A stretch of 64,000 nt of DNA from a virus. Position 1 is the first letter of the stretch; the number at the start of each line of letters is the position of its first letter. The notes beneath the pieces are model-generated. The model saw only the letters and a program-made list of their open reading frames with translations. It did no database searches and was not told the DNA's origin. Location: positions 336,902 through 400,901 of IMG/VR virus record IMGVR_UViG_3300045988_181003; one strand, written 5' to 3'. A program made the position numbers and the translations under genes. Below are positions 10,715-30,876 of the stretch, in pieces.

Positions 10715-11171
10715 AAAAGATAGAACGATAAAAATTATGACTCCGGATGGAGAGAAAACGATTAGATTCATGTCTGGTCGGGAAGCAGGAGACGAAGAAC
10801 ATTTTAGTTTTTGTCAAGAAAATTGCAAATATGCTAACTGTTGTGAAAATCTTCCAAATCCAGATTTAAATACACCGGGTGATAATTTAATGGACTTTTG
10901 TATAGCTCAGGATAATAAGAATCCGTCTGATCAGGATACTCTTATGAACACTTATTATCCGGTGAATATAGAAAAATATATCCCTAATTTTATGGATAAA
11001 GTCTTAAAATCTGACCCTAGATTTTCATTAAACGATATTCATAGTACCATTTGTCGAGAATTTTGTTCTCTTTATTCAGAGGCTGGAATTACTGATGAAT
11101 GTAGTGAGAAAAATCCAATGTGTGTATTACAAGCATTATTAATTAGAAATAAAACCAAAAACGATGATTGA
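10680..11171 (+). CDS. hypothetical Cys-rich protein
   Basis: 163-codon ORF with multiple Cys clusters (CQENCKYANCCEN). Confidence 0.4.
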   Translation: MIQILYYIMASKKDRTIKIMTPDGEKTIRFMSGREAGDEEHFSFCQENCKYANCCENLPNPDLNTPGDNLMDFCIAQDNKNPSDQDTLMNTYYPVNIEKYIPNFMDKVLKSDPRFSLNDIHSTICREFCSLYSEAGITDECSEKNPMCVLQALLIRNKTKNDD

Positions 11172-12480
11172 ACTGATAGGGAAACATGGAAAGGACTGCA
11201 AAATATATGTGGATGATCCAGAAGAAGATGTTATTCAGTTTCTATATAAAGTGTTAGATAATGACATCTCACAAGATATTCCAATTAGAGTAATGCCAGA
11301 TTGTCATTCTGGAACTGGGTGTATAGTTGGTCTTACATTACCAACTGAGACAAAAGTAAATCCAGAGTACATAGGTTGTGATATTGGCTGTGGGGTAGTT
11401 ACATTTATATCTAAAACTGCTATTCCAGATTCACCAGATTTAGCTAAGGTAAATTATAAAATTCGCAATCTTATACCAATGGGTATGGAAATAAATGAAA
11501 AACCTATAGTAGATGAGAAAGAATTTTATAGATATCTTCGGACAGAATACTCTAAAGCTAGGTCAGCCTGGCCAGAGGTAATTCCAGATGTTGGTGAAAT
11601 CGGAGAGAAATATCTGAGAGATATGCTCCGTAGATTAGGAATGGATCAAGGTGTATTTTATAAATCACTTGGTACATTAGGTGGAGGTAATCATTTTATC
11701 GAAGTCTCAGAAACTCCAGATAAAAATTGGGCTCTTACTGTTCACTGTGGTTCCAGAAATTTTGGAATTAAGGTGTGGAAGTATTGGTCTAAGATTGGAA
11801 AATCTATGAGAAAAGATGAAAAACGATTGAAACCTCTAGAAGCAGAGATTCGAGCTAAATATAGTGGACCAGAGATAGAAAGAAGAATAAAAATCCTTAG
11901 ACTTGATCCAGTATATAACCTAAGATCACCTAATGGATTTTTAGAAGGGTCTGATATGTCAGGATATCTTAGTGACATGTGTATAGCTCAGGCATATGCA
12001 TCTTATAACAGATACTTGATAATTAAAAGAATAACCTCAGCACTTCGGTGGAAAGAGGTAGAAAGAATAGAATCAGTTCATAATTATCTAGACTTCACAG
12101 ATCATATCCTTAGGAAAGGGTCAATTAGATCTTATCAGAACGAAAAACTAATTATTCCCTTGAATATGGCTGATGGAATTTTAGTATGTAGAGGAAAATC
12201 TAATCCAGATTGGAATTATAGTGCACCTCATGGAGCTGGTCGAAAGTTTTCCAGAAGTGCAGCTAAGAAAAATATAACTCTTGATTCCTTTAAAGAAAGA
12301 ATGACAGGTGTATTCTCAACATCAGTTTGTAAAGAAACTATAGATGAATCACCAATGGCATATAAGGACTCAGAACTAATTGAATCCTTAATTGAGCCAA
12401 CTGTCGAAGTTCTATATAAGATGAAACCTATTATCAATTTAAAATCAGCCAATATCTTAGATAAAAATGAAGAAGATTAA
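11164..12480 (+). CDS. rtcB: RtcB-family RNA 3'-phosphate/2',3'-cyclic phosphate ligase
   Basis: RtcB signature motifs: MPDCHSGTG, DIGCGV, GGGNHFIEV, HNY, APHGAGR. Confidence 0.85.
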   Translation: MIELIGKHGKDCKIYVDDPEEDVIQFLYKVLDNDISQDIPIRVMPDCHSGTGCIVGLTLPTETKVNPEYIGCDIGCGVVTFISKTAIPDSPDLAKVNYKIRNLIPMGMEINEKPIVDEKEFYRYLRTEYSKARSAWPEVIPDVGEIGEKYLRDMLRRLGMDQGVFYKSLGTLGGGNHFIEVSETPDKNWALTVHCGSRNFGIKVWKYWSKIGKSMRKDEKRLKPLEAEIRAKYSGPEIERRIKILRLDPVYNLRSPNGFLEGSDMSGYLSDMCIAQAYASYNRYLIIKRITSALRWKEVERIESVHNYLDFTDHILRKGSIRSYQNEKLIIPLNMADGILVCRGKSNPDWNYSAPHGAGRKFSRSAAKKNITLDSFKERMTGVFSTSVCKETIDESPMAYKDSELIESLIEPTVEVLYKMKPIINLKSANILDKNEED

Positions 12481-13920: not shown

Positions 13921-14020
13921 AATATCAGTTTTATAAAGCGGTTCTCCTACTACGTCCTATTCGTTCGTGCCCGCTGCGCTACTCACAAGGACTACGTAAC
14001 GGAGAACTAACGGCTGCGCC
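13921..14020 (-). other. GC-rich structured element immediately 3' of VR1 (candidate DGR homing hairpin/cruciform)
   Basis: about 100 nt of high GC in AT-rich genome; inverted repeats gttctcc/ggagaac and gtcc..tac/gta..ggac; direct repeat cgctgcgc x2; absent from the equivalent position of the paralogous VR2 locus. Confidence 0.4.
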
Positions 14021-16852
14021 TTACGCTAGCGCTACTTGTAGGGAGGCGGCAGAGTAGCGGGTCGAAGCCGACTGGGAGGGGTTGCCATACCAGGCACGAG
14101 CCGAAGCGGCACTCCAGTTAGCGTGACCTCTACCACGCATACTAGCACGGACCTTTGATCCCCGGGTGTTGAACCAGCCAGAAGCGTCATAGTTAACAGC
14201 ATACGAACAAGCTCCTGTCGTCATAGTACCGCCACCTTTGGCAGTTGGAACTGGAGTGTAGGGAAAATATTCTTTTACCCAACCTTCGCCATTTCTAATT
14301 CCAGTTCCTACTTTTTCATAGATATATTCGAAATCAAACTTAGATCCGTCTGTATTAGTAATTGCAGTTGTATAAGTCAGATCTTTTTGTCTAGTGCATA
14401 GATAAGCAGTAAATGGATTAACATATTTACTTCCATCTGTTGTCGGAGTTTCAACATCTACCACTACTTCACAACCAGCGTATCCATAATCAAATACATC
14501 TCCCCAAAAAACTTCTCCATCAATAACTGGAATCTGTAATACTACTTGAACTAGTACACTTGATTCCACTGCAGTAGCTGAATCTCTTGTAGTAAATCCC
14601 TTCACTTCTGTCTCTGGGTAAATTTTAACAAGTTTGGCGTTCATGTCTGGGCCGTCTAGGAGAGTAGCCGCTTTAGTAACATTAGTATACTTATAAGTCT
14701 CTTCATCCCAGTAAAATATAGTATCTGGTTGGATTCCACATTCTACTGCTAAGGATAATGCCATCTGTGATTCTAAGGTTCTTTCTTTTGGTGCTTCTCC
14801 ATTAGCTACTACAGTAACTCGTTTATCATTAGATATAGCTGCTGAAGCACTACTAGATGAATAATAATACAAACATATACCATCACTATTTTTCAGTCCC
14901 GTCGATGATGAGTTATAACCCTGAGACATGAGACTATAATAGTAAGTGCTAGATTCTGCATTTTCTCTTAATCTCATTCCAGTTACTGTTCCCCAGTTAC
15001 CAGCATTTACTCCAACATTACTACTAATTCCATGTCCCCAATAAGTTCCAAGATTATATGTTCCATATTTTACAAAATCAGCATATAATCTGCTCATCTT
15101 GTGGAAACACATTCCTTCAGAACAAGGTAATGGAGATGTAGTATTTTTATTCTTTGCTCTGGCTTTCTGCATAGTAGTAATAGCATTCTGATTATAGGTA
15201 GGATAAGCATAACCGGCTCTATTGAATATATCAAAATCTGGGTATTTAGATTTATCTAATCCATATCTAGGTAATGAATATCCAGCTGAACCAGCACCAG
15301 ATTTACAATAAATTGATCTTAATTTACTATTTATTTGAGTTGGTAAACCTGGACAACCACCAGTAGGATCAACTAGTTTTGCTAGAATTCCATCATAATA
15401 GGTTTCTTTCTCAAAGAAGGCAAATATCTCTTGTCCCCTTCTTCCTTTTTCTCCTCCTATTATCCATATCGGTTTAGTCCATCCACATACTATATCATAA
15501 CCTTTATCAATAGTCTCCCACGGTCTTCTACAATATACTTCAGTACCAGAGGCATTATATAAAGGAGTAGGTTTGGACAATCCAGCTCCACCATAAGTTG
15601 TCCACCATGTATTTGGGTCATATGATCCAGCAGCAAATGCTAAATTTTGTCCAGACGTATCAGTATAAAGTGCTACACTAGATGCGTTATACTGAGCTTC
15701 TGATATAACAACTGTAGGAGCCCATTGACCATTAGTAAATCTTAGCCAATTGTTTTTCTGTAATTCCCCAACTATTTTGGCTTTCTCACCATCACTAACA
15801 TCAATTAAGTAAAAACCTTTAGAATTAATTATTTTTAAACTTCCAGTCTCTTGAACATCAGCATCTGGTGATAAACCAGGTCTGTTCCATTCAGCATATT
15901 CTTTATACCCCAAAGATTCTTTCATCTCATTAGTTTTCCTAGAAGCTTCATCAAGTATTTCAGCATCTCTTCTAATCATTTCGGATGTTACTAATTTAAC
16001 AACAAAATCTATATCTTTGCGAGTGCTGTATCTTATATATTTAGTTCCTTCTGGGAGCTGTGAGTATGGAATAAATCTTTCAACGTTAGATTGATCTGAA
16101 TAAGGAATTATTTGAGCTATGAATGTATAGTTTTTATCATATGCATTCATTAATGAGTATTTTTCGCCAGCATCAGAAGTATAATACTTTAGTTTATTAC
16201 TATAAATACTAGTATTTTTGGGGACAAAGATAAAAGATGACGTAATATATTTATTAAGAGTATTTAATACAGTAGTACCATCACTTTGTAGTAAAGAATT
16301 AGTTGTTTTACAATTACTGTAGTCAACCTCAGAATATGCTCCTATCTCTGTCCACTCAAAAGATCCACTAGTTATTTCATCTCCTCGAAATTCATGCCAA
16401 AGACCTAAAGAATCTTTGAATTTTATTGTACATCCATCAGTTAGAGTTGCTATAGTTTCATAATCTACCACAGCAGTTGTTATATCTGGATAAGATTTTC
16501 CCATTAGCTGGGTAATATTTACAGAACTTTCATAGATACTTTTTCGTTCCTCATTTATTTCTGGAGTAGGAATTTTTACTAATCCATTTTCATCTGGACC
16601 ATATGTTACTCCTCGATAAATTATTTTAGAAATATTACCAGATGCATGGAATTCAATATATCCTGTTATTTTATTATCAGAACTTATCTCAGTTGCTGAG
16701 TATATTTTTTTTGTTTCTTTTACATAAAACAACATTCCAATCCAAGGATATGGTATTTCAGATATTTTTGCAATTGTATCTATAACAACTCTTAAGTCTA
16801 ATGGTTCATTATGTAATGAAGGAATTAGTGCTCCTTCTATATTTTCTAACAT
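14021..16852 (-). CDS. tail fibre / receptor-binding protein, DGR target 1 (C-terminal variable repeat)
   Basis: 943 codons; N-terminal approx. 60 aa shared with two other large fibre proteins; conserved central motifs (IVGELQKNNW, GYDIV.GW, LEGPDMNA, FEGIYEK); C-terminus ...MRGRGHANWSAASARAWYGNPSQSASTRYSAASLQVALA encoded by VR1. Confidence 0.8.
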   Translation of the reverse strand: MLENIEGALIPSLHNEPLDLRVVIDTIAKISEIPYPWIGMLFYVKETKKIYSATEISSDNKITGYIEFHASGNISKIIYRGVTYGPDENGLVKIPTPEINEERKSIYESSVNITQLMGKSYPDITTAVVDYETIATLTDGCTIKFKDSLGLWHEFRGDEITSGSFEWTEIGAYSEVDYSNCKTTNSLLQSDGTTVLNTLNKYITSSFIFVPKNTSIYSNKLKYYTSDAGEKYSLMNAYDKNYTFIAQIIPYSDQSNVERFIPYSQLPEGTKYIRYSTRKDIDFVVKLVTSEMIRRDAEILDEASRKTNEMKESLGYKEYAEWNRPGLSPDADVQETGSLKIINSKGFYLIDVSDGEKAKIVGELQKNNWLRFTNGQWAPTVVISEAQYNASSVALYTDTSGQNLAFAAGSYDPNTWWTTYGGAGLSKPTPLYNASGTEVYCRRPWETIDKGYDIVCGWTKPIWIIGGEKGRRGQEIFAFFEKETYYDGILAKLVDPTGGCPGLPTQINSKLRSIYCKSGAGSAGYSLPRYGLDKSKYPDFDIFNRAGYAYPTYNQNAITTMQKARAKNKNTTSPLPCSEGMCFHKMSRLYADFVKYGTYNLGTYWGHGISSNVGVNAGNWGTVTGMRLRENAESSTYYYSLMSQGYNSSSTGLKNSDGICLYYYSSSSASAAISNDKRVTVVANGEAPKERTLESQMALSLAVECGIQPDTIFYWDEETYKYTNVTKAATLLDGPDMNAKLVKIYPETEVKGFTTRDSATAVESSVLVQVVLQIPVIDGEVFWGDVFDYGYAGCEVVVDVETPTTDGSKYVNPFTAYLCTRQKDLTYTTAITNTDGSKFDFEYIYEKVGTGIRNGEGWVKEYFPYTPVPTAKGGGTMTTGACSYAVNYDASGWFNTRGSKVRASMRGRGHANWSAASARAWYGNPSQSASTRYSAASLQVALA
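14041..14130 (-). repeat. DGR variable repeat VR1
   Basis: approx. 90-nt match to TR (27931-28020); all 15 mismatches fall at TR adenines (coding strand), AAC codons in TR replaced by CAC/GCC/CCC/ACC/TAC etc.; 3' IMH-like gccgcctccc identical to TR. Confidence 0.85.
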
Positions 16853-16895
16853 TTTATTAAATTTATTAAAAAGTTTATTAAAGGTTCTCCATTTT

Positions 16896-19508
16896 TCACA
16901 CCAATGCTACTTGTAGGGACGCAGAATAGGCGCGGTACGAAAGTGACTGGGAGTTTGGGCTGAACCAGTAACGCGCCGAAGAGGTTTTCCAAGTAGAAGC
17001 ACCCCTACCACGCATAGAGGCTCTGATTTTCCGGCCTGCTACAGAAAACACAGTATCTCCGTAATTATCATAGTTAATTGAATATGCACAGGAACCAGTA
17101 TATAACGTTCCACCTTTGGTAACTGGAACAATTGAATATGGGAACAGATTTTTAGAGTATGCTTCACCATCTCTGATTCCTTCACCTATTTTCTCATAAA
17201 TTCCCTCAAATCCAAATCCACCACCAGATGTATATGAAGAATTCAAATACATTAATTTTTCTTGTGATGTACATAGATAGGCAATAAATGGGTTTGTATA
17301 TCTATGAATCCCACTAGATGTTGGTGTAACTACATCAACTACTACCTCAAGTCCTGCATAACCATAATCAAATATATCTCCCCAGAGCACCATACCATCA
17401 CACACTGGCCATTGTAATTTCATCTGACCCGTTACCGCCACTTTATTAGTAGTTCCCTTTTCATAAGGTTCACCTGAGAAATCTGTCCATTTAAATAAAC
17501 GAGCATTCATGTCTGGTCCTTCTAGGAGAGTATGTAAGTTGGGGATATTAGTATACTTATAAGTCTCTTCATCCCAAGTAAATTTTGTTTCTGGTTCAAT
17601 TTCTTTTTCTACTGCCCAAGATAAAGCCATTTGAGCTTCGAGTGTTCTACTTTTAGGATGTTCTAGATTTATCCAATAATTCCAGTTATATCCACTAGTA
17701 GATCCAGAAACTCCTGAAAAATTAGGATTATCTGCAAAAGTATGATGTAATAAATCTCCATTATTTATAGTAAATCTTATCCCACTTCCTCCTGAGCATT
17801 TATCCCAAGTGGTGGAATTGGGAGTTATATTTGAACTGATCCCTGGTCCCCACAAAGAATCTTGGTGAAGATCATATCGTAGATATTTAATATATCTAGA
17901 ATAAATATGACTCAATTTATGAAATCCCATTCCCTCACAAACTGGCATACTAGATTGAGTATCACCAATATTTCTTGCTCTGGCTGATGTCATAGTAGAT
18001 AATTGAGAAACATCTGTTTTTGGGTAGGCTCTATTTGTTCGCTGAATGTCAAAAATACTATTTTGACCAGCCGACATAGATCCACCGGTGTCTTTTATAT
18101 AGATACATCGTAAAGTATTCTTATAATAAGTTGGTAGATCTAAACAATACCCCGTTGGACTCACTTCTTTGCTTAAAAATCCATTATAATATGTTGGATT
18201 ACTGAAGAAACCAAATAAAGTATTCCCTGAGGAATCAAATTCTCCACCTAACATCCATATAGTTTTCTTCCACCCTATCACTATATCATAACCGAGATCT
18301 TTACTCTCCCAAGGTTTTCTAACATATACCTTAGCACCGGATATATTATATAAAGGCTGTTCAGCTTTATTATTTTTTAACCACCAATCAGTTGCATCAA
18401 AATTACCAACTGAATAAGCTAAATTTGTATGAGTTGGGTCAGCATATAGATCAACATTGGTTGCATCATAGTCTGAATCAGTTATAACAACCGTTGGTGC
18501 ATAACTACCGTCTGTGAATTTAAAGAGATTATTTTTCTGTAATTCACCAACTATCCTAACTCTATTTTTTCCAGAGGTATCCTGATGAATATGGACTAAA
18601 TATATTCCTTCTTCATTAGCAATTTCTCTATTCCCTACATTATAAGATGCTCTAGGTGATAGATTATTGGTTTTCCAAGAAGCAATTTCTTTATGTCCAA
18701 CTTGTTTATATGCCTCATCTACTTTTTCAGATAAATCAAGTATTTTTTCAGATAAATCTGCTTTAGCATTAAGAGAAAATATTTTAAGGGATAATGAATT
18801 ATATTTTTCATTATTATTTATAGAAAAATATACAGTTCCCTCAGGTCTATCAGATGGTTTTATTATTCTAGAATCTAATCCTGCTGTGCCGGATGTGAAT
18901 GCACTAATAAAATTATAATCTTTATCAAAATAAACTATTCTAGGGTCTGATGCACTAGTATAGGTTCGACAATAGATATAATCATTAGTTCCAATATGAA
19001 CAAAATAAGTTGAATGAAGGTCAGCTGATGTTGCATTATTCCCTGCTGAAGTATAAAATGTTCCAGTGTTATATTTAATATCACTATAACTTACCTCACA
19101 ATATTCACTAAAATTCAACCACTTAGTTCCATCCCAAAGATATTCTTGCCAACCAAGTGTAGAATCTTTATATTTTAAAATCAATCCATCTGAATAACCA
19201 TCAGCCGATTCATCATTATCAGCCTGAAATCGATAAGTCTCTACTCCACTAAGTCTAGTCATTGCAGTTGTTATTGTAACCTCTTCTGCATTTTGTAAAC
19301 CAGGCAGAGTATTATCATCATATACTGGATAAGGATATACAAGTTCTTCATCCCCAGACAAAGAAGATGGAAATAATTTCTCATAATTATTTAATTTCAT
19401 GATAATCTTATCTCCATCTTCACTTAATCTAGGAACTAAGTGTAATCCCTCCAGTACTTCCTGAGATACTTCTGATAGTTTCTCAATTGGAAATACAATA
19501 TATTTCAT
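16896..19508 (-). CDS. tail fibre / receptor-binding protein paralog, carries diverged variable repeat (VR2)
   Basis: 870 codons; shares central motifs and C-terminal RASMRGRG...SASLQVALV with the 943-aa paralog. Confidence 0.8.
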   Translation of the reverse strand: MKYIVFPIEKLSEVSQEVLEGLHLVPRLSEDGDKIIMKLNNYEKLFPSSLSGDEELVYPYPVYDDNTLPGLQNAEEVTITTAMTRLSGVETYRFQADNDESADGYSDGLILKYKDSTLGWQEYLWDGTKWLNFSEYCEVSYSDIKYNTGTFYTSAGNNATSADLHSTYFVHIGTNDYIYCRTYTSASDPRIVYFDKDYNFISAFTSGTAGLDSRIIKPSDRPEGTVYFSINNNEKYNSLSLKIFSLNAKADLSEKILDLSEKVDEAYKQVGHKEIASWKTNNLSPRASYNVGNREIANEEGIYLVHIHQDTSGKNRVRIVGELQKNNLFKFTDGSYAPTVVITDSDYDATNVDLYADPTHTNLAYSVGNFDATDWWLKNNKAEQPLYNISGAKVYVRKPWESKDLGYDIVIGWKKTIWMLGGEFDSSGNTLFGFFSNPTYYNGFLSKEVSPTGYCLDLPTYYKNTLRCIYIKDTGGSMSAGQNSIFDIQRTNRAYPKTDVSQLSTMTSARARNIGDTQSSMPVCEGMGFHKLSHIYSRYIKYLRYDLHQDSLWGPGISSNITPNSTTWDKCSGGSGIRFTINNGDLLHHTFADNPNFSGVSGSTSGYNWNYWINLEHPKSRTLEAQMALSWAVEKEIEPETKFTWDEETYKYTNIPNLHTLLEGPDMNARLFKWTDFSGEPYEKGTTNKVAVTGQMKLQWPVCDGMVLWGDIFDYGYAGLEVVVDVVTPTSSGIHRYTNPFIAYLCTSQEKLMYLNSSYTSGGGFGFEGIYEKIGEGIRDGEAYSKNLFPYSIVPVTKGGTLYTGSCAYSINYDNYGDTVFSVAGRKIRASMRGRGASTWKTSSARYWFSPNSQSLSYRAYSASLQVALV
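16911..17010 (-). repeat. diverged DGR variable repeat VR2 (possibly decayed or served by another TR)
   Basis: aligns codon-by-codon to TR; every TR AAC/AAT codon is substituted, but about a dozen additional non-adenine mismatches and 3 mismatches in the IMH-like 3' end. Confidence 0.55.
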
Positions 19509-19628: not shown

Positions 19629-20918
19629 TTAGGTGGTTATTAATTCATTACAAAATTTATATTCCTCGCAATTAGAATTAAGATACTCTTTATACTTATT
19701 TCCACAGAATATCAGTCTACCTTGTTGTCTGTCAAGAATTTGACCAACTCTAAAGCTTGGAATATAACTATTCTTAATAGCAAAATTAACATAACCATGT
19801 AATCCTTCATATGGATCACTAGATGCAGCATGATAGGTAACAGTATAAGGCTTATCTCCCCCACTTGGTCTTTCACCAACAAACTTAAATGTGCATCCTT
19901 CTATTACAATGTTACTTGATAATGCAAGACCTCCTCCAATACACTTTGATAGGGCGTTATCCATTGTTTCATATTCACTAATAAAATGGATGTTGTAATA
20001 TTTATTAATATAACTCTCAACTACAGTACCAGGATCATCGTGTACTACATAGCAGCCATTGATATTGTGCAAAATAGCATCATGTAATTCATAACCACCT
20101 CCAGTAGAGCTACAACCGAATAAGTTACAATGCTCATTTATATCTACATTTGTTCCCGTATAATGTAATGTAATTTTTGAGTTGTTAAACCAATATCTGC
20201 AACCTCCACCAATAGGCAATTCATGACCTCTTAATTTATATTTGCTTTCAATCAGATCAAAAACTTCTTGGTTAAATAGATAATCCCCAAATTCCCAAAC
20301 AACATCTACATTTCCAGTTGTATATGCATCAATTAATTTGTTTAGTATTTCTTCTTGAGTATCCGCCGTTCTGATATATCTCTTTTGTAATTTACTCTCA
20401 AGTTTACTCTCTATAATTACACCATTTTTTATTGAGTTGGATATAACTTTGTTGGCAGCTATCACACTTTCTCTTCTGTGGGTAATCTTATAACATGATT
20501 CATAAGCGTAGTTATAGGATATAATCACCTTAACAATTTCACTTGGTACAATATATTCTCGTGTAACAACATTGTTAATACCTTTATCAGGTATGACATT
20601 TCCATTAACATCATAAGCGCATAAAAACTTAAATGTAGCTCTACCGCCTTCTGTTTCATTCAAGTCAGTTACAGCTATAATATCATTTTCATTTACTATT
20701 ACCTCTTGATATCTATAACTAGTAGCTGATACTCCTGAATATGTTCCGTTAGAATTATAAAATCCTATATTATTGTTATCTTTAGGATAAGTTATTTTTT
20801 CCTCTGACGATATAACTTCAAAGTTTTCATATACTTCTTCAAAATTATTATCTATTCCTTGTGCAATAGTACCCCATATTTTTGCATTATCTTTTGCTAT
20901 ATCAAATATCTTTTCCAT
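19629..20918 (-). CDS. hypothetical tail-associated protein
   Basis: 429 codons, Gly/Cys-rich C-terminal half, sits between fibre genes. Confidence 0.45.
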   Translation of the reverse strand: MEKIFDIAKDNAKIWGTIAQGIDNNFEEVYENFEVISSEEKITYPKDNNNIGFYNSNGTYSGVSATSYRYQEVIVNENDIIAVTDLNETEGGRATFKFLCAYDVNGNVIPDKGINNVVTREYIVPSEIVKVIISYNYAYESCYKITHRRESVIAANKVISNSIKNGVIIESKLESKLQKRYIRTADTQEEILNKLIDAYTTGNVDVVWEFGDYLFNQEVFDLIESKYKLRGHELPIGGGCRYWFNNSKITLHYTGTNVDINEHCNLFGCSSTGGGYELHDAILHNINGCYVVHDDPGTVVESYINKYYNIHFISEYETMDNALSKCIGGGLALSSNIVIEGCTFKFVGERPSGGDKPYTVTYHAASSDPYEGLHGYVNFAIKNSYIPSFRVGQILDRQQGRLIFCGNKYKEYLNSNCEEYKFCNELITT

Positions 20919-20919
20919 A

Positions 20920-23900: not shown

Positions 23901-25746
23901 ATATGTTAGTGTTATTTTTACCAAATGTCCAAGTTTGGATAATTCCATCTGTAGGAGACTGGCTTTGTTCTAAGATGAATGCTCCTTGATCACCAGTGGC
24001 TGCTTTTGAAACAATACCTCCACTGTCTATCATAAAATTCAAAAATTTTCTATCAGCCACCACAGTATAGTCCTTCAAAACAGGAAGACCAGTTGTCTTG
24101 CCGAAATCATCAACCCCATTCAAGCATAGGGTGTTCTCTATGTCATCAATAGGAAGTACTGTAACCTTAACATTAACACTTTCGTTATATTTACTTATAC
24201 ACCAACCACTATAAGCTGCTTCTTCAGTTTGCGGAGTAGCAGGAATGTCGTATATACCATCTTCTAATATATCTACATAAGTAGTTACAGAAGCAGTAGT
24301 ATTTATTCTCCATTTAAGATTTCCTTCTGTAATAGTAGAAACACCTTCAATCTTAACTTTATAAGTAGGTAAAACTTTATTTTTAGTATTAACTTCTAAT
24401 AAATTAGCAGTACTAGTATTAGAAGTAATAATGAAATTGTCTTTATTTACTATTACATTACCTCTATCAGGAAGATAAGTGTAATCTTTAAAACTAATAG
24501 GATAATTACCTATACCACTTTGTTTCTCCCAAGCAATATTGTTCAATTGCATATCATATCCATGACCAGATAAATCTACTAATTTATCACTAAAATCAGA
24601 GTGATTATCATTGGTAATTCCTTGTTGGGATATATTATAATATACCTGAGGAGTTATACATCGATCTAGGTTATAATATTCTATTATAAGATGTATTTCA
24701 TTCTCTGTCAGTACTCTATCAGCAATAATTGTCCAATACCAGGCTACTTGTGATAATTCTGCCAGATTACCATTTGATGAATTCTTATAACCAACTACAC
24801 TATAAATGTCGTTAGTCTGATGTGTTCCACCTTGAGAAACATAATCTTCTTTATCACCAAGAAGTTTTACAGAATTAGGAACAGTTGGTGAAACTTTTAG
24901 ATTAGGACAAGTGTATCCATATATCCCCGTTTTTCCAGTATTTCCTTTTGCTACAATATTTCTGGTACACATTAATGATGAATTATATCTGATATTATTT
25001 ATAGAATTACTAAAAGATTCTCCTTCTATATCAGATATTTGAGTAATCATTGATATGACAGTTACTTTTCCACTGTTTCCTATAATTGAATCTAGAGTTT
25101 TATCTGAATAAATAAAATCATCTATACCATCTGTTACTAATGCACAAGGATAGTCTGGATTGCCATATCCAGAATTGGGTGTATATGAAAACCCTGATAA
25201 TACTAGATTATTTCCATTTCCAGATATGTCTGATATAATATCTCTATCTGAATCTTGATTTGTCTTTCCAAATGCAGTACAAACCATTTTGATAGAGTTT
25301 TTAAGATCACTAGATAAAGTTTTTCCTAAAAAATCTCTAAGATCATTTTCAGCTGTATAGAAATTATTATATAGTTTTCCCTCTTTTTCTTTAGTTATAT
25401 TTATCTTTTGAGAATTTCTTAATTCTTTAGACTCATAAATATATCTAGAATCATCTGGTATAGTAATTACATTAGAATCAGTAACTTTAATTATCTCATC
25501 ATTGATTGTAACTGATTCTGCTCCAACTGAAGTAAACAATTCATAATCTTTAACTCCACTTAAATCATCAGTTAAAGAAGTAATTGTATAATAATAACCT
25601 GTATCAAGACAATAAAATATTCCACCGATATCTGGATTTAGAATAGTATTTACCTCTGATAAGGTTTGTATTCTATCTCGAACATCTAGCGGCTGATTAT
25701 TTTGTAACTCAATACCACTAGATGTTATAATTTGTTTATTACTCAT
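20920..25746 (-). CDS. very large tail fibre / structural protein with internally repeated domains
   Basis: 1608 codons; N-terminus homologous to N-termini of the 943- and 909-aa fibre proteins; repeated modules (GYPVV.GANKTW..., IE.QPEY...LDG.DD). Confidence 0.7.
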   Translation of the reverse strand: MSNKQIITSSGIELQNNQPLDVRDRIQTLSEVNTILNPDIGGIFYCLDTGYYYTITSLTDDLSGVKDYELFTSVGAESVTINDEIIKVTDSNVITIPDDSRYIYESKELRNSQKINITKEKEGKLYNNFYTAENDLRDFLGKTLSSDLKNSIKMVCTAFGKTNQDSDRDIISDISGNGNNLVLSGFSYTPNSGYGNPDYPCALVTDGIDDFIYSDKTLDSIIGNSGKVTVISMITQISDIEGESFSNSINNIRYNSSLMCTRNIVAKGNTGKTGIYGYTCPNLKVSPTVPNSVKLLGDKEDYVSQGGTHQTNDIYSVVGYKNSSNGNLAELSQVAWYWTIIADRVLTENEIHLIIEYYNLDRCITPQVYYNISQQGITNDNHSDFSDKLVDLSGHGYDMQLNNIAWEKQSGIGNYPISFKDYTYLPDRGNVIVNKDNFIITSNTSTANLLEVNTKNKVLPTYKVKIEGVSTITEGNLKWRINTTASVTTYVDILEDGIYDIPATPQTEEAAYSGWCISKYNESVNVKVTVLPIDDIENTLCLNGVDDFGKTTGLPVLKDYTVVADRKFLNFMIDSGGIVSKAATGDQGAFILEQSQSPTDGIIQTWTFGKNNTNISNSKITERGIVVQTKYQYNYSANLTLGSGIDQSSMWMGTLRDNDTRFSKVAIWSFLLYPYSMSEFLIERQLKKLKLGTLYPGMIQWKPIVESNIPYKRILYFNVSTGNPILVGDYIPIGTRVQINIATTNETDEISKVTLNGEEMTKGNVDAQYWRFILAVTRSPQRIDITIDEYIRYEDILQPYPTVIHFKNEDGTHEYTYGDKIKIGSRIKYLNFENLLSNFYTIVGALYFNGNRFGSDESIKYAVVEKNNTLNWSVKCKWKLSTPEALFMYDPDIINNTGLSNLGYLPDLTGQGRHLKLNNFTYEGISGKDGYPVVFGANKTWLTIRPNNSESFMAEYHSNYISITKISFNIALLHSYIKSEGVLTEYNKEIPSFKVKVRGLSGDFGIRYAYIDSETSTTKQTIQISEDGTYTLPKSYAGTDNLTDENIWVGFSAVDLKNIGHYDCNITIEVQPEYTGALCFDGVDDRGTVENIAYGGKYLGMKTNWQRKGTVLYDQRKTVSYTGLCVYIPSDSEVSKFPAYQTRNQDGYTYIDSVLNKYITTAELYAKTHVFETICETDNSSNTVSPVFGSTVGGSNFSQFAMYRTVVLPEVPSNSDREILCEWLGTSEGYVEKPEYYWDVYGKTNDEGDSRVNILEQVRKQSGVSQDNMYLRCVNFSYEGMSGYKGYPVVLGANKTWINLRTNDGNAWSYGLTSNSITIYKVEHPTFALFYSYVNDVNGSYSITIPSFNIKVNGLKTGESIRYYYVSADNTSNNSFITINSNGIHELPASVPIQVKEETPATVWIGMNITLINNESTEGVRIEIQPEYPSGLVLDGIDDYINCNYIPEFTDYTYIIKYKDIGDPAIYSAIQHKGSLKTGGGAFIQSYITSSTVIQQYNFGQANTLSCTDEIQYCTKTNYNGSNLIVGTNTDTKGIAFGEWNNVYRKMVFYKEMLWSKTIDPLSIGMIRNLMEQDGIIDLGNKLFKKNVVISSVDNETSISNNTLIKND

Positions 25747-26224
25747 CTCCCTTCCATCCTATTTCTTTTAATCCAGCTTTAACCCATTTAACAAAAGTAT
25801 CATGAGCTGTAATTTCTGGATCACTTGGATCTGTGAATCTTTTTCTATTAATAGCTTCTATTTCTCCATCTTCAGCAGAAAACTCTTGACGGATAGCTGC
25901 GTTAATTAATCTACCATAGGTAACAGGTTTTTTGCAAACAATTGAATAAGCATAGTCAATCTCCTTTTCATGACTAACTGGATTTTCTTCATCTAGAATT
26001 TCACTAGTTGTAATAGTTTCTCTAGTATGTTTTATAAAAACTTGTTTAGAAGAACCAAGATCAATTTCCACTACCTTATCATCTAAAAATTTAACTAATT
26101 TAAGATCTTTTTCACTCCAATTTTCTTTGATTGTTTCTGGAGTATCTATTGGCTGCATTGCCAAATCTTGAATACTTTTAATCATGATTTTAAATATTTT
26201 CGTTATTATTAATACTTGAATCAC
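25739..26224 (-). CDS. hypothetical protein immediately 3' of DGR reverse transcriptase (possible accessory factor; not Avd-like)
   Basis: 161 codons overlapping RT 3' end by 35 nt; acidic, so unlike basic Avd. Confidence 0.45.
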   Translation of the reverse strand: MIQVLIITKIFKIMIKSIQDLAMQPIDTPETIKENWSEKDLKLVKFLDDKVVEIDLGSSKQVFIKHTRETITTSEILDEENPVSHEKEIDYAYSIVCKKPVTYGRLINAAIRQEFSAEDGEIEAINRKRFTDPSDPEITAHDTFVKWVKAGLKEIGWKGDE

Positions 26225-27719
26225 TATCTTTATAATATCCCAAAGAGTTATTAGTTAATGTTGGGAAATATTTAGATAGTTCACTCTCTTGTACTTCTTC
26301 TAAGTATTCAACAGAGTCTTTAAAAATTATACCACCATCATCCTCAAGAACTAAGTGTTCTAGTGGAAAATATGTTTTCTGACGTTCTTCAAAACTGATA
26401 CCCATTTGTTTTGCTTCGAATGCTATCTGTTTATCAAGTTTAGATAGAAATTCGAATATATATTTATATCCACCCTTAACTTTAAATACTTTGTAGGTTG
26501 GATATTCTGGTTTAAATGGATTAGCTACTGGTTTAGAAACTTTTATTCCTAAAATCATACATACCCAAGGACTAGATTTTTTATCTGGTTCTCTTAATTC
26601 ATAACTAATTAGTATCAATTCTTTTCCAAGAACTGCTTTCACGTCTTTGCATGGAACGTTTACTGTTCCCTCTCTAACTTTTAGAGTCTTTGCAATATTT
26701 CTAAAGTCCAAATCTTTAATATTATTTGTTAATACTTTCCAGAGATTTATAGTATCAGCATGACAAATTAATCCAAAATATGATGCCATAGATTCTCTAG
26801 ATTTTTCTATTCTCTTTTTTGCTCTTTTCTTCAATGTTTTTCTAACTGTGGTATATCCTTTTCCATGATGATTTTTAGTTTGTTCTGATCTATGAAAAAC
26901 ATAACCACCTATGTCTACTGGAACTCGAACTGGACATAATTTAATATTTTTCTTAAGTCTATATTGAAGTTCCCTCTTAAGATATATTTTTACAAACTCC
27001 AGAACTTTTTTGGCTCCTTCTTTTGTCTTACAACCAATAAATACATCATCTGCATATCTATGATAGCTCACTACATCTGGAAATTTTTCTAAGATTAAGT
27101 GATCAAACTCAAGCATAATGATATGATGATTAGTTGGACTGAGTGGTGTTCCAATTGGTAATCCTTTATTACACATTGAGACTTTTCTAAGATGTTTTAA
27201 AAGAAGAGGATCTTTGAATAATCTTTCATGTGCTTTCCACATTACTTCTGGTTTTGTCGATCCATAACAATTTTTTATGTCTAACTTTAAATACCACTGC
27301 ATTTCATGTTTTTCATAAAAATCATGTTTTAATTTATGGACCATTGAATATCTCTTATTACTGGATGTTATTCCTCGCCCAGGTATACAATTATATACAT
27401 TGTCTACAATATACTTCTCAAATCTGGGTCGAATCAAGAGGAGTATAACATGCATCACAATTCTCCATTCTAACGAACAACAAGATATTTGTCTAACTTT
27501 ACCAGTAAATGATACTTTTGTTAATGGCGAATAAACTATTGAATGTTTAAGGTAGAATTCTGATTTTATTCTATCATAGATAATATCTACATTATGTTGT
27601 AGGTTTTTCTTAAAATTAATTACATCTCTATGATGAATTTTAGATTTTAAAGCATTAAGTGTTGCTTGGAGTACTAAATCTTTAGTTATAGTACACCATA
27701 AGTTTCCCTGTCTTTTCAT
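26190..27719 (-). CDS. DGR reverse transcriptase with approx. 180-aa C-terminal extension
   Basis: YADD catalytic motif (SYHRYADDVFIGC), GLPIGTPLSP motif-4 (bRT-like GLPIG), GRG motif, basic thumb; located just 3' of an AAC-rich template repeat that matches VR1. Confidence 0.85.
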   Translation of the reverse strand: MKRQGNLWCTITKDLVLQATLNALKSKIHHRDVINFKKNLQHNVDIIYDRIKSEFYLKHSIVYSPLTKVSFTGKVRQISCCSLEWRIVMHVILLLIRPRFEKYIVDNVYNCIPGRGITSSNKRYSMVHKLKHDFYEKHEMQWYLKLDIKNCYGSTKPEVMWKAHERLFKDPLLLKHLRKVSMCNKGLPIGTPLSPTNHHIIMLEFDHLILEKFPDVVSYHRYADDVFIGCKTKEGAKKVLEFVKIYLKRELQYRLKKNIKLCPVRVPVDIGGYVFHRSEQTKNHHGKGYTTVRKTLKKRAKKRIEKSRESMASYFGLICHADTINLWKVLTNNIKDLDFRNIAKTLKVREGTVNVPCKDVKAVLGKELILISYELREPDKKSSPWVCMILGIKVSKPVANPFKPEYPTYKVFKVKGGYKYIFEFLSKLDKQIAFEAKQMGISFEERQKTYFPLEHLVLEDDGGIIFKDSVEYLEEVQESELSKYFPTLTNNSLGYYKDSDSSINNNENI

Positions 27720-27930
27720 TTGTCCTAATCATTTATTTTTTTTTTCGACCAGGCTGTCTCAGCTTTCGAAATGATTTCTCATCCTACTAACAAAGATCCG
27801 TATCTCGCCTTTTTATATATACGGAGTGTCTTGATATTTTTTGGAACTTCCCCAAGGTTTACCTGGTGTTTCTCTCACCATCCACGGCTCGAAAGTCTGA
27901 ATGGATTTAGAAAATCAACAGGTCATAAAA
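27720..27930 (-). ncRNA. non-coding spacer between TR and RT start (candidate DGR RNA spacer/priming region)
   Basis: 210 nt without ORF between TR 3' end and RT start codon, same strand; by analogy with Bordetella DGR RNA where the spacer primes cDNA synthesis. Confidence 0.3.
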
Positions 27931-28020
27931 GGGAGGCGGCATAGTTGCGGTTCGAATTCGACTGGGAGTTGTTGCCATTCCAGTTACGAGCCGAATCGTT
28001 ACTCCAGTTAGCGTTACCTC
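27931..28020 (-). repeat. DGR template repeat (TR)
   Basis: non-coding (in-frame stop) repeat; sense strand encodes ...GNANWSNDSARNWNGNNSQSNSNRNYAASL with 9 AAC/AAT codons; VR1 differs only at these adenines. Confidence 0.85.
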
Positions 28021-28059
28021 AAAACCAAGTAAACCTATTCTAAATATTTCTATTTAGTT

Positions 28060-28146: not shown

Positions 28147-30876
28147 TTATTTTAATTTTATTTGAAAATATCCACAAAGAGGTACTGCATATTCTGCACA
28201 AGTACTAAATACAGATCTAAATGTAGCTTTAGCACCAGCATCTGGACTAGTATCTTTGATTGTTGGATATACAAGTTTTTTCTTACCTACATCAGTATTA
28301 GATTCACCCCAACCAGAACCTACATTTGGACAACAGGCAACTGAAAATAAACATTCTCCATTTGTATAAGTACCTCCCATTGTTTTTGGAAAGAGTGTAT
28401 ATGGATATACCTCAGATACACTGTTAGCTTTCTTATCTAGAAGAATATCATCTATTTTCTCATAAATTCCCTCAAATCCATAATATTCATCTGGTCCAAT
28501 AGTTCCATAAGAACTCAGTTCAACTAGATCTTCTTGTTTAGTACATAAATACAATGTAGCTGGATTATCATATATAGTAGTTTTTTCAACTTCTGGTATT
28601 TTATTCATAGTTACCACTGCCTCAAATCCAGTAACATACTGTCGACAAGGCGCTATTCCTATTAATTCTCCATCTAAAATAGGATATTGTATACAAGCCT
28701 CGACAGAATCTAACAAAACTTCCGCTCCAGTTTCGTCTAGAACTTTAAAATTGCTCAAAGAATACTCTTTAAATAGCTGAGCATTCATGTCTGGTCCTTC
28801 TAGAAGTGTTGGTAGATCTTCTATATTTTTATACCAATAAGTAAAACCTAAGTATTGAAATTTAGTATCTGGTTGAATATTATTTTCTACTATCCAAGAT
28901 AATACAATTTGTTGTTCTAGGCAGAGAGTTATATCTGTACTGAGAGAATTAAAAAGAGCAGTTAATACTGGTATCTTAGTTAATGTACTAGAAGTAGCTG
29001 ATGAATATCTATAGAAATCATTTTTTGGAGTATTTCCTGAATATACATAATCCTCTTGACCATTAATTTTATATCTAAAACCTGTCTTAGTTTCCCAATT
29101 GGCAGCACTAGAGTCATAAGCATTAATTATACCTATTCCCCATTTATTCTGTAAATCTTTAGTTCCATATTTTATTAAAGCAGAATAAACATGACTCATC
29201 CAGTGGTACATCATAACAGGTGCTGCCGGAATAAAACCAGTTGAACCTGGATTTTTATTTTTACAATATTGATCACCAGTTATTCTATCGAAGGAATATC
29301 TCCAACACCTACCATTACTAAATCCAGTATATCTATTTAATAGAGTTCCCTCTTGATTAAATATAGCATACCCACTAGCTGGCCAAGAACCGACTGGCAT
29401 TGATTGAGAAAAGAATATAGATCTAGCTGGTGAATTTGATGCGTTTTCGACTGAATATGCTCCAGCACTAATTCCAGTCGGTTCTATTAGTTTAGCTTGA
29501 ACACCTTCATAAAATGTAGGTTTATTAAAAAATCCATAAATTTTTCTACCAGATTCTCCAGTCTCACCACCTATCATCCAAATAGGATCTTTCCAACCAA
29601 TTACTATATCATAACCTTTATCAGTTGTTTCCCAAGGTTGAGTTGGATCAGTTGTTACAACAACCGGGGCATAACTACCATCTGTAAATTTAAACCAATT
29701 GTTTTTCTGTAATTCACCAATTACCTGAACTTTACCAGTACTGCTATCTACGTTAATTAAATAAACCCCCTTCTTATTGATGATATCCATATCTCCAACA
29801 ATAGTCTCTGCCTGTGGATCTAAAGAATTAGGATCCCAAAATGCAGCATTAACTTTAGAGAATTCATTTTCTACCTCCCTTAAATTATCAGAAACTTGTC
29901 TGTATTTAGAGTAATTACTCTGTAAACCCTCCTGACTAAATATTTTAAATTCATTATTTAATGGAGTTGTTAAATCTTTATTAATTTTGAAACAAACCCT
30001 AATGTACTTAGTATTAAAGTCAAGATCTTTTACTTTAATATTTCTTATTACTTTAGAAGGAATAGAACCTGATCCAGAGAATACTGCAAAGTTATCAGTA
30101 TAGTTATAATCTTTATCATAAGTTATTATACCTAACATTCCCTCTGCTAAATATCCATTATAGTATAATTCATCTGATTTATTAACTAAGATATAATCAG
30201 ATAATCCACTATCATTTACTTCTGGTTGAGTTGGATCAGTTTGTAGATTGCCTGAATTGGTTATAGTTCCATTCGTTTCTATATAATATGGATATAGTGG
30301 GATATCAGAGTAATCTATTTCAAAATAATTTCCAATCTCTTTCCATCCAAGAGAAGTATATTGATAATCATGCCAATTATTGTTATGATCTCTAAATCTT
30401 CTAATACAACCTTCTGGGAGTTCTGATTGAACATTATCTTTCCATAATTCATATAATTCAGTATTGGCTTCTTCTGGGGTATTATAAGAGTTCCCAGTAA
30501 TCATAGTTATATTGATTAGGTCAGAATACTGAATTTTCCATTTCAAATCTTTAGATTGAGTTCCTATATTTATATCAAAATTATCATCCAGTGTTTCGAT
30601 TATCTGACCAAATTCAATAGTCTCAATATTTCCTTTTCCTTGGAATATTTCCCACTTAGATACTACTGAATTAGGAAATTCGTGACCAGACACTATTTTT
30701 CCTATTAATTCTGTTACAACATAGTGTTTGTTTTCGTCCTTTACATATACGATTTCACCTTCATATGGGTTAGGGATTGATGTAATCTCACTTAGAGTAT
30801 TAATTCTTTCCCCAACCCTGAAAGGAGTATCAATGGTATTAATCTGTAATGGATCTGTTTTAATAATTTTTGCCAT
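28147..30876 (-). CDS. tail fibre / receptor-binding protein paralog lacking a variable repeat
   Basis: 909 codons; shares N-terminus and central motifs (QVIGELQKNNWFKFTDGSYAPVVV, GYDIVIGW, LEGPDMNAQLFK, FEGIYEKI) with the two VR-bearing paralogs but has an unrelated distal C-terminus. Confidence 0.75.
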   Translation of the reverse strand: MAKIIKTDPLQINTIDTPFRVGERINTLSEITSIPNPYEGEIVYVKDENKHYVVTELIGKIVSGHEFPNSVVSKWEIFQGKGNIETIEFGQIIETLDDNFDINIGTQSKDLKWKIQYSDLINITMITGNSYNTPEEANTELYELWKDNVQSELPEGCIRRFRDHNNNWHDYQYTSLGWKEIGNYFEIDYSDIPLYPYYIETNGTITNSGNLQTDPTQPEVNDSGLSDYILVNKSDELYYNGYLAEGMLGIITYDKDYNYTDNFAVFSGSGSIPSKVIRNIKVKDLDFNTKYIRVCFKINKDLTTPLNNEFKIFSQEGLQSNYSKYRQVSDNLREVENEFSKVNAAFWDPNSLDPQAETIVGDMDIINKKGVYLINVDSSTGKVQVIGELQKNNWFKFTDGSYAPVVVTTDPTQPWETTDKGYDIVIGWKDPIWMIGGETGESGRKIYGFFNKPTFYEGVQAKLIEPTGISAGAYSVENASNSPARSIFFSQSMPVGSWPASGYAIFNQEGTLLNRYTGFSNGRCWRYSFDRITGDQYCKNKNPGSTGFIPAAPVMMYHWMSHVYSALIKYGTKDLQNKWGIGIINAYDSSAANWETKTGFRYKINGQEDYVYSGNTPKNDFYRYSSATSSTLTKIPVLTALFNSLSTDITLCLEQQIVLSWIVENNIQPDTKFQYLGFTYWYKNIEDLPTLLEGPDMNAQLFKEYSLSNFKVLDETGAEVLLDSVEACIQYPILDGELIGIAPCRQYVTGFEAVVTMNKIPEVEKTTIYDNPATLYLCTKQEDLVELSSYGTIGPDEYYGFEGIYEKIDDILLDKKANSVSEVYPYTLFPKTMGGTYTNGECLFSVACCPNVGSGWGESNTDVGKKKLVYPTIKDTSPDAGAKATFRSVFSTCAEYAVPLCGYFQIKLK

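Follow-up and report, generated by a model that had tools for sequence, protein, structure and literature searches.

A degenerate variable repeat beside a live one: a probable fossil target of a phage diversity-generating retroelement

Is a variable repeat (VR) that departs from a resident template repeat (TR) at adenines and also at other bases a former target of that template, or the present target of another one? The question is raised by a 64,000-nucleotide stretch of viral DNA (the window), part of a huge (∼400 kb), gut phage-like genome. In a diversity-generating retroelement (DGR) the TR is transcribed and a reverse transcriptase (RT) makes cDNA with random bases opposite adenines; this cDNA replaces the VR, which is recognised via its GC-rich 3′ end and the adjoining flank. 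A preliminary description of the window had offered two readings of its second VR (VR2), a fossil of past diversification or a repeat served by a different TR outside the window.

The window holds one DGR, on the minus strand. The order along that strand is the gene for a 909-aa paralogue, the TR, the RT gene, a 161-aa ORF, two large genes, the 870-aa gene that ends in VR2 and the 943-aa gene that ends in VR1. The family of VR, TR and VR has exactly three copies within the 64 kb, and there is one RT gene. The core of the cassette is as follows.

27933..28019, minus strand: template repeat (TR), intergenic, with 10 Asn codons (AAC/AAT) in the VR frame
27720..27932, minus strand: TR-to-RT spacer, opening with CCTTTTATGACC
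26190..27719, minus strand: reverse transcriptase, 509 aa (Pfam RVT_1, 1.7e-20; PHROG reverse transcriptase, 8e-51; YADD motif)
25739..26224, minus strand: 161-aa ORF, overlapping the RT 3′ end and present in all loci (148–161 aa)

The TR lies ∼210 nt upstream of the RT start, the adjacency by which DGRs are known, and it forms with VR1 a pair that differs at adenines only. Doulatov et al. in 2004 reportedly gave the DGR-type RT signature in motif 4 as [I/L]GxxxSQ; motif 4 of the window RT reads LPIGTPLSPT, i.e. IGxxxSP instead of SQ. NCBIfam returned group II, retron and Drt matches for the RT, all below threshold in a comparison that held no DGR-specific HMM. Across Pfam, PHROGs and NCBIfam the RT alone was recognised, with no Avd homologue and no match for the 161-aa ORF, which is possibly an accessory protein. 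The TR diverges from the VR flank at CCTTTTATGACC, an IMH*-like sequence. The spacer that opens with it has no match in Rfam, and an Rfam search of the whole window found nothing.

Three large paralogues accompany the cassette, two of them with a VR at the 3′ end.

14021..16852, minus strand: target gene 1, 943 aa, from the ORF list and paralogue alignment
14043..14129, minus strand: VR1, the active variable repeat, at the C-terminus of the 943-aa protein
16896..19508, minus strand: target gene 2, 870 aa, intact, a paralogue of the 943-aa and 909-aa genes
16918..17004, minus strand: VR2, the degenerate variable repeat, C-terminal ∼30 codons of the 870-aa protein, aligned to TR without gaps
28147..30876, minus strand: third paralogue, 909 aa, immediately upstream of TR, without a VR

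The three proteins are 32–41% identical along their length, and the VR scaffold has no counterpart at the aligned C-terminus of the 909-aa protein. That the target genes encode fibres is suggested by their size, their paralogy and a relative with collagen repeats; the name stays provisional because Pfam, PHROGs and NCBIfam recognise the RT only. A search for homologues of the C-terminal 260 aa gave a single protein, and a profile search against PDB sequences gave no match. Variable proteins of DGRs present the VR on a C-type-lectin (or Ig) fold; the structure of the target domain was predicted with pLDDT 78.6 from 32 sequences (pLDDT 30 from 8 sequences), and the 32-sequence model has no significant neighbour among solved structures, Mtd included. 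The distance between VR2 and VR1 is 2.9 kb.

VR1 is a live DGR target. Its 14 mismatches to TR all fall at adenines, with 0 of 62 at other bases. We compared the window with 20 related metagenomic loci (L001–L020), in which the TR is well kept (at most three polymorphic non-adenine sites); VR1 has no non-adenine mismatch in seven of the eight aligned loci, nor in L014, L015 and L019, and has one in L020. Five contigs (L001, L007, L016, L017 and L018) break off no more than 40 nt from the VR1 start; at VR2 no contig does.

VR2 aligns with TR and VR1 without gaps and in frame. Like an active target it sits at the 3′ end of an intact ORF, in codon-for-codon register with the Asn codons of TR. The preliminary description had its coordinates and content right. 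That every TR Asn codon is substituted proved slightly too strong, as nine of the ten are changed and the AAC at 16953–16955 is retained. Over the 87-nt core there are 30 differences from TR, 16 at its 25 adenines and 14 at its 62 other bases ('about a dozen' in that description), where an active target would show mismatches at adenines only. Runs of identity reach 11 nt at most. The IMH-like, GC-rich 3′ end is not intact: VR2 TATTCTGCGTCCC differs from TR TATGCCGCCTCCC at three of the last 13 nt of TR homology, the number reported before. Eight of the 14 non-adenine differences are synonymous or at third positions, which is typical of ordinary drift. The VR2 scaffold can be written TCT..AAA..AGC..TCT GCG.

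The resemblance of VR2 to TR is no chance match, the degenerate pattern having found none in 100 shuffles. It could instead be plain paralogous homology of the C-terminal domain, in a protein that was never a DGR target; the three paralogues are after all similar along their whole length, and the 909-aa member has no VR. We find this hardly credible, since VR2 is 66% identical to TR over the core, with differences concentrated at TR adenines (Fisher p = 4e-4), and since orthologous VR2s in relatives are adenine-only copies of TR or nearly so (L010 and L011). In L002, L004 and L005 both VR1 and VR2 differ from their own TR at adenines alone (11–17 sites), and in L002 and L004, where the resident TR is present in the data, both repeats carry its non-adenine alleles. 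As the VR2s of these relatives are still TR targets, the window VR2 was once a target of the same TR.

It does not now behave as one. Where an active target would be hypervariable at adenine sites between populations, VR2 has 0 differences among nine sequences, namely the window and eight contigs from other metagenomic samples (those with the window VR2 haplotype include ERR13273059, SRR24800307, SRR24800277, SRR35139662, ERR13194085 and ERZ28577013). Among five near-identical genomes, with at most two differences in 5,426 flanking nt, VR1 differs at 4–20 of 87 positions and VR2 is the same in all. An identical VR2 is also shared by six window-type proteins, which are 92–99.9% identical elsewhere; in 36 active-type pairs at least 99% identical elsewhere, 7–12 of 30 VR residues differ.

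Could a second cassette nevertheless be serving VR2, from a TR of its own that lies at another place in the ∼400-kb genome and agrees with VR2 at non-adenine bases? Our search covered 64 kb of that genome, another template could in principle match all 14 non-adenine differences, and there are known cases of multiple DGRs in one genome and of TRs that act in trans (PMC10907252; PMC5758913). An actively served VR would vary between samples, however, and VR2 is invariant at every site in nine sequences while VR1 varies. The window has no second TR-like repeat or RT, and the VR2 pattern, with N at adenine sites, was unmatched in the window, in viral contigs and in GTDB genomes, the last two being weak negatives as these public collections lack this phage. 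In addition, the VR2 codon CCA opposite a TR Asn codon would call for AAA as the template codon, which is unusual; since L008 reads CCC at this place, a C>A point change at a later time is the simpler account. A second cassette is thus very improbable, and of the two readings offered earlier this one is not supported, the more so as the orthologous VR2s of relatives were written by the same TR. The fossil reading fares well: VR2 is constant beside a varying VR1, its changes are drift-like and, as set out below, it has lost the 3′ flank of active VRs.

It is also very improbable that the RT itself made the non-adenine differences, a non-canonical mutagenesis that Wu et al. (2018) proposed for DGRs with multiple targets (PMC5758913). 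The same RT and TR produce no non-adenine change in VR1 of seven of the eight aligned loci and of L014, L015 and L019, and the changes in VR2 are fixed and identical across samples, not variable.

The two targets differ in what follows them.

13940..14041, minus strand: element E, the GC-rich 3′ flank of VR1, 102 nt, GC 55% (31% for the window)
13948..14020, minus strand: block of E absent after VR2, from alignment of the flanks
16883..16917, minus strand: altered VR2 3′ flank, CCCTACAAGTAGCATTGGTGTGA-AAAAT-GGAGAACC

Element E occurs once in the window and follows every active VR, near-identical in all loci and almost invariant among them. As defined by alignment to the orthologues in L002, L004 and L005 and to VR1, the VR2 flank falls 68 nt short of the flank of active VRs, with five substitutions in the last four codons; VR2 also lacks the target-specific flank. 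The same E-less junction is common to the window, L001, L007–L011 and L014–L020. All 11 VRs with element E have 0 non-adenine mismatches, and all six E-less VR2 haplotypes have some (1, 2, 6, 13, 14 and 15), an association of p = 8e-5 by Fisher's test among haplotypes that are phylogenetically non-independent. In the outgroup L013 the VR is likewise followed by a long GC-rich non-coding tract, and the C-terminus ends in ...ALA, which argues that the E-bearing state is ancestral. From this correlation, loss of the 3′ element may have caused VR2 to freeze.

We considered a BPP-1-like hairpin for E and dropped it. Folded as DNA, E does no better than shuffled sequence (z = 0.5), and its inverted repeats are of 6–8 nt only, with no strong GC-rich hairpin, so E is not demonstrably an element of the BPP-1 type. 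It shows neither similarity nor complementarity to the TR-RT spacer. The near-identity of E after VR1 and VR2 could be due to gene conversion instead of constraint.

The E-less alleles also bear on whether homing into VR2 continues, with rewritten variants purged by selection for one specificity. The intact ORF and the many synonymous changes among the non-adenine differences point to purifying selection on the protein, and the E-less VR2 of L007 is a perfect match to the TR of that locus over its 3′ half, as in a partial rewrite. This reading is nonetheless improbable: it leaves unexplained why non-adenine mismatches are found in every E-less and no E-bearing allele and why assembly breaks are absent at VR2, and the short identity runs (at most 11 nt), with three mismatches in the GC-rich 3′ end, make efficient homing unlikely. 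In L010 and L011 the mismatches of VR2 lie solely at TR allele positions that are tracked by VR1 of the same genome, so that VR2 is stale there too. At many adenine sites the E-less VR2 of L010 is unlike that of L011; together with the 3′ half of L007 this indicates either recombination of the E-less haplotype onto other VR2 alleles, or some homing or VR1-to-VR2 gene conversion that went on after E loss.

The 870-aa gene is strongly mosaic among relatives by sliding identity, with its ORF intact in all loci, which raises the alternative that VR2 and the 3′ part of the gene were imported by recombination from a diverged phage with another TR scaffold and never matched the resident TR. Over the last kilobase the window-type gene body is 13–25% diverged from the L002 type, near the 23% of VR2 at non-adenine sites. 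We judge import rather unlikely. VR2 haplotypes with the same junction form a graded series against nearly identical TRs, with 1, 2, 6, 13 and 14 non-adenine mismatches. The window and L008 have adenine-site outcomes in common, and some non-adenine changes too, and are set apart by later point changes (CCA versus CCC), which indicates a shared frozen ancestor and drift since then. Viral contigs and GTDB genomes yielded no donor TR. Imported or not, VR2 would be a non-retargeted fossil in this genome.

A scan of JGI metagenomes yielded one locus, L012. The 18-kb DGR region found a single unrelated 130-nt match among INPHARED phages, and in IMG/VR neither relatives of the 870-aa protein nor matches to the VR 3′ junction turned up.

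VR2 is therefore probably a fossil target of the resident TR, frozen after a lesion in its 3′ flank and drifting while VR1 still hypermutates. In the sequence of events that we propose, the VR2 lineage would have acquired a 3′ haplotype of single origin, combining the five substitutions in the last four codons with a 68-nt deletion in the GC-rich element, and this lesion would have removed or crippled recognition of VR2 as a target. Overwriting would then have ended, with the last set of adenine-site outcomes kept, and VR2 would have gathered ordinary point mutations, 14 of them at non-adenine sites; three of these lie in the GC-rich 3′ end and lower its homology to TR still more. As the 870-aa protein is intact, the phage would have one fixed and one diversifying version of the same C-terminal domain.

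More tentatively, and with some doubt, E (13940–14041) might license target recognition by the DGR without a hairpin, as an element of a kind not described before, and its natural internal deletion would act as an off-switch that fixes one of two paralogous receptor-binding tips while the other keeps hypermutating. If so, the E-less alleles, which range from 1 to 15 non-adenine mismatches, would record VR decay as a natural time series, and L007 would be a case of rare residual partial homing.

A degenerate VR is an already known kind of thing, here with an unusually clear natural history, and the case leaves the overall understanding of DGRs unchanged. DGR catalogues contain many VRs with non-adenine mismatches, for which sloppy RT, other templates and dead targets are usually hard to separate; the VR2 locus would give a clean answer for one case, with the same TR and tandem targets, one of them frozen with a defined flank lesion. 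It suggests a practical way to recognise fossil VRs (non-adenine mismatches, a stale TR allele, flank loss and no assembly break), offers E as a candidate for a sequence acting in cis in target recognition, in a DGR lineage distant from that of BPP-1, and provides an example of a phage with a fixed and a variable version of the same binding domain.

The DGR of Bordetella phage BPP-1 comprises the mtd VR, TR and brt, with target recognition by IMH and a downstream hairpin/cruciform (PMC3240598); efficient retrohoming there depends on 24 bp that lie directly beyond the 3′ end of VR (Guo et al. 2011, PMC3240598). As in BPP-1, the RT of the window adjoins TR, the VR forms the last codons of a large phage protein (here probably a tail fibre), mismatches are adenine-only (here in VR1) with a template dominated by AAC codons, TR-VR homology stops in a GC-rich stretch beyond which the flanks diverge, and sequence directly downstream of VR correlates with target activity. 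Unlike BPP-1 with its one adjacent target, the window has two tandem targets 11–14 kb from TR, no Avd homologue that we could recognise, a downstream element of ∼100 nt without a convincing GC-rich hairpin, a target domain without significant match to Mtd, and a huge (∼400 kb), gut phage-like genome as host of the cassette.

Among catalogued DGRs, 23% have non-A-to-N substitutions, often with a contrast between targets of the same DGR (PMC5758913); an example from Wu et al. (2018) is ANKO01000117.1, where one target has seven and the other is free of them (PMC5758913). The window resembles these multi-target DGRs in having one TR and two targets, one canonical and the other with many non-adenine mismatches. 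With 14, VR2 exceeds the maximum of 11 in that survey (PMC5758913), and the comparative data point to decay after homing, linked to a 3′ flank lesion, instead of RT infidelity. Dore et al. (2024) described non-diversifying or degenerate DGR loci in Thiohalocapsa PB-PSB1 (PMC10907252). VR2 is likewise a target without population variability despite working DGR machinery in its genome; unlike those loci, the silent repeat here has decayed and is accompanied by a specific candidate lesion.

The window carries a diversity-generating retroelement (DGR), recognised by its reverse transcriptase (RT), its template repeat (TR) and a first variable repeat (VR1) that departs from the TR at adenines only. 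Three members form the single repeat family that a repeat search detected in the window, no other repeats appearing at ≥60% identity. The features concerned are:

14031-14141, repeat copy at VR1 (repeat search)
16906-17016, repeat copy at the second variable repeat, VR2 (repeat search)
16896-19508, minus strand, 870-aa ORF with VR2 at its 3′ end
26190-27719, minus strand, 509-aa ORF, the RT
27921-28031, repeat copy that is the TR (repeat search), intergenic, between the 909-aa and 509-aa ORFs
28147-30876, minus strand, 909-aa ORF, third paralogue, directly upstream of the TR

The 509-aa ORF matches Pfam RVT_1 (1.7e-20) and a PHROG RT family (8e-51) and has a YADD motif; its RT motif 4 is IGxxxSP. 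No Avd homologue was recognised with Pfam, PHROG or NCBIfam. Minus-strand order is 909-aa paralogue, TR, RT, ORFs of 161, 1608 and 429 aa, VR2 gene, VR1 gene. VR1 and VR2 are the last ∼30 codons of a 943-aa and the 870-aa ORF, respectively, whose products are paralogues of each other and of the 909-aa protein (32–41% identity). The latter has no VR, its C-terminus being unlike the VR scaffold in alignment; the TR adjoins this non-target paralogue, and both targets are 11–14 kb distant.

The VR-bearing C-terminal domain (200 aa, 16899-17498) has 127 representatives, at the C-termini of proteins of 600–1400 aa. A Pfam scan of nine family members found nothing for this domain and only collagen repeats in one member; a fibre identity for the target proteins is plausible. 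The AF2 model of the domain is confident enough (pLDDT 78.6) and has no significant structural neighbour in PDB or BFVD. Many domain relatives share the tail R-x-R-G...C-S-P-R...GGSAQVLL and look like further DGR targets. The exact 870-aa protein is also found on contigs of 208,911, 346,561 and 400,901 nt from human-associated metagenomes, which places the window in a huge phage-like genome; Pfam and PHROGs recognise almost none of that genome's large proteins.

The 87-nt cores of the TR (27933-28019), VR1 (14043-14129) and VR2 (16918-17004) align gaplessly and in frame. The 14 differences between VR1 and the TR all fall on TR adenines, leaving 0/62 changes at other bases. VR2 differs at 30, comprising 16 of the 25 adenines and 14 of the 62 other bases, a significant enrichment at adenines (Fisher p = 4e-4). 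The codon-for-codon alignment reported in the preliminary description is upheld, as are the three mismatches to the TR in the VR2 3′ end (TATTCTGCGTCCC), with one correction: a single TR Asn codon escapes alteration, AAC being retained at 16953-16955, so that nine rather than all ten are changed. Eight of the 14 non-adenine changes are synonymous or third-position, and the remaining six hit five codons (A>S, S>K, A/D>S, G>S, A>S), a mix of the kind that ordinary drift leaves in coding DNA subject to purifying selection.

Homologues of the 870-aa protein are few: four clusters at 90% identity comprise 27 sequences, whose contigs, the longest 400,901 nt, derive from metagenomes of the human gut and elsewhere. 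Around them, 20 loci (L001–L020) were retrieved for comparison. At L002, L004 and L005, VR1 and the orthologous VR2 each depart from the TR at adenines only (11–17 sites), and in L002 and L004 both carry the non-adenine alleles of the resident TR at core positions 63, 78 and 81. (The DNA retrieved for L005 has no TR; its VRs match the L004 TR allele, which was used as its reference.) Together these patterns indicate that one TR serves two tandem targets there and that VR2 in these loci is a genuine target of the same template. Over 1.5 kb upstream of VR2, L002 and L004 are 99–100% identical, yet 16 positions separate their VR2s, and adenine sites account for 15 of these; among active-type proteins, the 36 pairs that share at least 99% identity apart from the VR differ at 7–12 (mean 10.4) of its 30 residues.

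The window's own VR2 is static while VR1 undergoes rewriting. Among contigs from other samples that encode the window's exact 870-aa protein or a one-residue variant, VR2 is identical at 87/87 positions in nine sequences (window, L001, L014–L020). VR1 is available for five of these (window, L014, L015, L019, L020), which over 5,600 aligned nt differ pairwise at 0–2 positions outside the repeats, 4–20 in VR1 and 0 in VR2; their VR1–TR mismatches are at adenines only, bar one site in L020. A second decayed haplotype repeats the pattern, L008 and L009 having the same VR2 and different VR1s. An assembly break is the usual sign of within-sample hypervariability; five independent contigs (L001, L007, L016, L017, L018) end within 40 nt of the VR1 start and none at VR2, and such breaks might be used as an inexpensive marker of DGR activity.

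VR2 had been read either as a fossil of past diversification or as served by a different TR outside the window. The latter is disfavoured: a second active template is unlikely mainly because VR2 does not vary, and the 64-kb window holds no second RT and, with N at adenine sites and ≤3 mismatches allowed, no other match to the VR2 pattern. That pattern also had no match in public viral and genome collections, from which this phage is absent. VR2 descends from a target of this TR, and the fossil reading draws support from its stasis beside a rewritten VR1 and from a 3′ lesion of single origin that is absent from every active VR.

A common ∼100-nt GC-rich sequence, element E (CCTACAAGTAGCGCTAGCGTAAGGCGCAGCCGTTAGTTCTCCGTTACGTAGTCCTTGTGAGTAGCGCAGCGGGCACGAACG[A/G]ATAGGACGTAGTAGGAGAACC), stands downstream of every active VR and is near-identical in each copy. 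It follows VR1 at every locus, the window among them, and VR2 in L002, L004, L005 and L012. The window's one copy (13940-14041, after VR1) has 55% GC, against 31% for the window. After the window's VR2 stands instead CCTACAAGTAGCATTGGTGTGA-AAAAT-GGAGAACC, which keeps both ends of E and is 68 nt shorter (5 nt from stop codon to GGAGAACC, versus 73 nt after VR1); the last four codons carry five substitutions, changing …QVALA* to …QVALV*. The same E-less junction occurs in L001, L007, L008/9, L010, L011 and L014–L020, and its identity across loci points to a single origin. In the distant relative L013 a ∼260-nt GC-rich non-coding tract follows the VR and the C-terminus is …ALA*, which favours presence of E as the ancestral state and its absence as the derived one.

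E folds no better than shuffled sequence (z = 0.5), contains inverted repeats of 6–8 nt only and is too invariant for covariation analysis; given the fold score and short repeats, we make no claim that it is a BPP-1-type hairpin. The VR1 and VR2 copies of E differ at one A/G site, the coding sequence just upstream being only ∼70% identical; their near-identity may reflect either strong constraint or repeated gene conversion. In L012, a contig that encodes protein P0026, the VR and E of the 871-aa gene (200-560, minus strand) run straight into the sequence normally found after VR1 (GGAGAACCGCTTTATAAAACTG...), so that the 943-aa gene is absent, apparently lost by recombination between the two VR+E repeats.

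All 11 E-bearing VRs compared have 0 non-adenine mismatches to their own TR (L005 scored on the L004 allele), and all six distinct E-less VR2 haplotypes have some (Fisher p = 8e-5, the haplotypes being phylogenetically non-independent).

Non-adenine mismatches in E-less VR2 haplotypes
L011: 1, at TR allele position 63
L010: 2, at TR allele positions 78 and 81
L007: 6, all in the 5′ third
L008/9: 13
Window: 14
L001: 15

The L010 and L011 mismatches fall precisely on the TR positions that are polymorphic, at which VR1 of the same genomes matches the resident TR; VR2 there thus last received its sequence from another TR allele and has stayed unrefreshed. The VR2s of the window and L008 have in common the adenine-site outcomes at 34, 40, 41, 46 and 47 and several non-adenine changes (42, 43, 79 and 84), and differ by later point changes (e.g. 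CCA versus CCC), the signature of a frozen ancestor followed by drift.

The 3′ lesion is the inferred cause of the freeze. This fits the order that the allele series suggests, in which alleles already lacking E retain an intact scaffold (L010, L011), and the need of BPP-1 for sequence downstream of the VR: there a 24-bp sequence directly downstream is required for efficient retrohoming and, when transplanted, can retarget the system (PMC3240598). The E-less L010 and L011 alleles, on L002-type gene bodies, are unlike one another at numerous adenine sites, and L007 VR2 has a decayed 5′ third and 3′ two-thirds that match its own TR perfectly. Such patterns imply that alleles exchanged the E-less flank by recombination, that VR2 underwent gene conversion from VR1, or that rare (partial) homing proceeds in the absence of E; low-efficiency residual homing into an E-less VR2 is possible. 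Recombination of the E-less flank is plausible because the 870-aa gene is strongly mosaic (16896-19508 compared with L001, L002, L004 and L005), which indicates frequent recombination among co-circulating phages, and because VR2/VR1 recombination appears to have deleted the 943-aa gene in L012. The window gene is 91–97% identical to L002 in parts of its 5′ third and 95–100% to L001 in its 3′ half; the 5′ half of the L001 gene is identical to L004.

The interval between the RT and the VR2 gene (19629-25746) diverges strongly in gene content among relatives, with genes of 1608 and 429 aa in the window, 1582 and 773 aa in L001/L004, a single 782 aa in L002, and 1253, 312 and 429 aa in L010. In L007, the locus with the apparently partly rewritten VR2, the RT (1779-3307) is called as ORFs of 116 and 384 aa and the counterpart of the 1608-aa gene as 879 and 720 aa; this could be DGR pseudogenisation in that lineage or assembly error. 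An RtcB-like gene, intact in the window (11164-12480, plus strand, 438 aa), is called as two pieces separated by 160–210 nt in L008 and L010 (292 and 178 aa) and L011 (264 and 190 aa), possibly through an insertion, intron or frameshift.

VRs that are degenerate or silent have been described before, and the window's VR2 belongs to that kind. Wu et al. found non-A-to-N differences in 23% of DGRs, with a maximum of 11 in one target; targets of one DGR were often unlike in this respect, and the choice between RT infidelity and independent mutation was left undecided (PMC5758913). Dore et al. described a non-diversifying target whose silence was unexplained (PMC10907252). What the present case contributes is a candidate lesion and a natural history that is well resolved, and its main value is as a natural experiment on target recognition.
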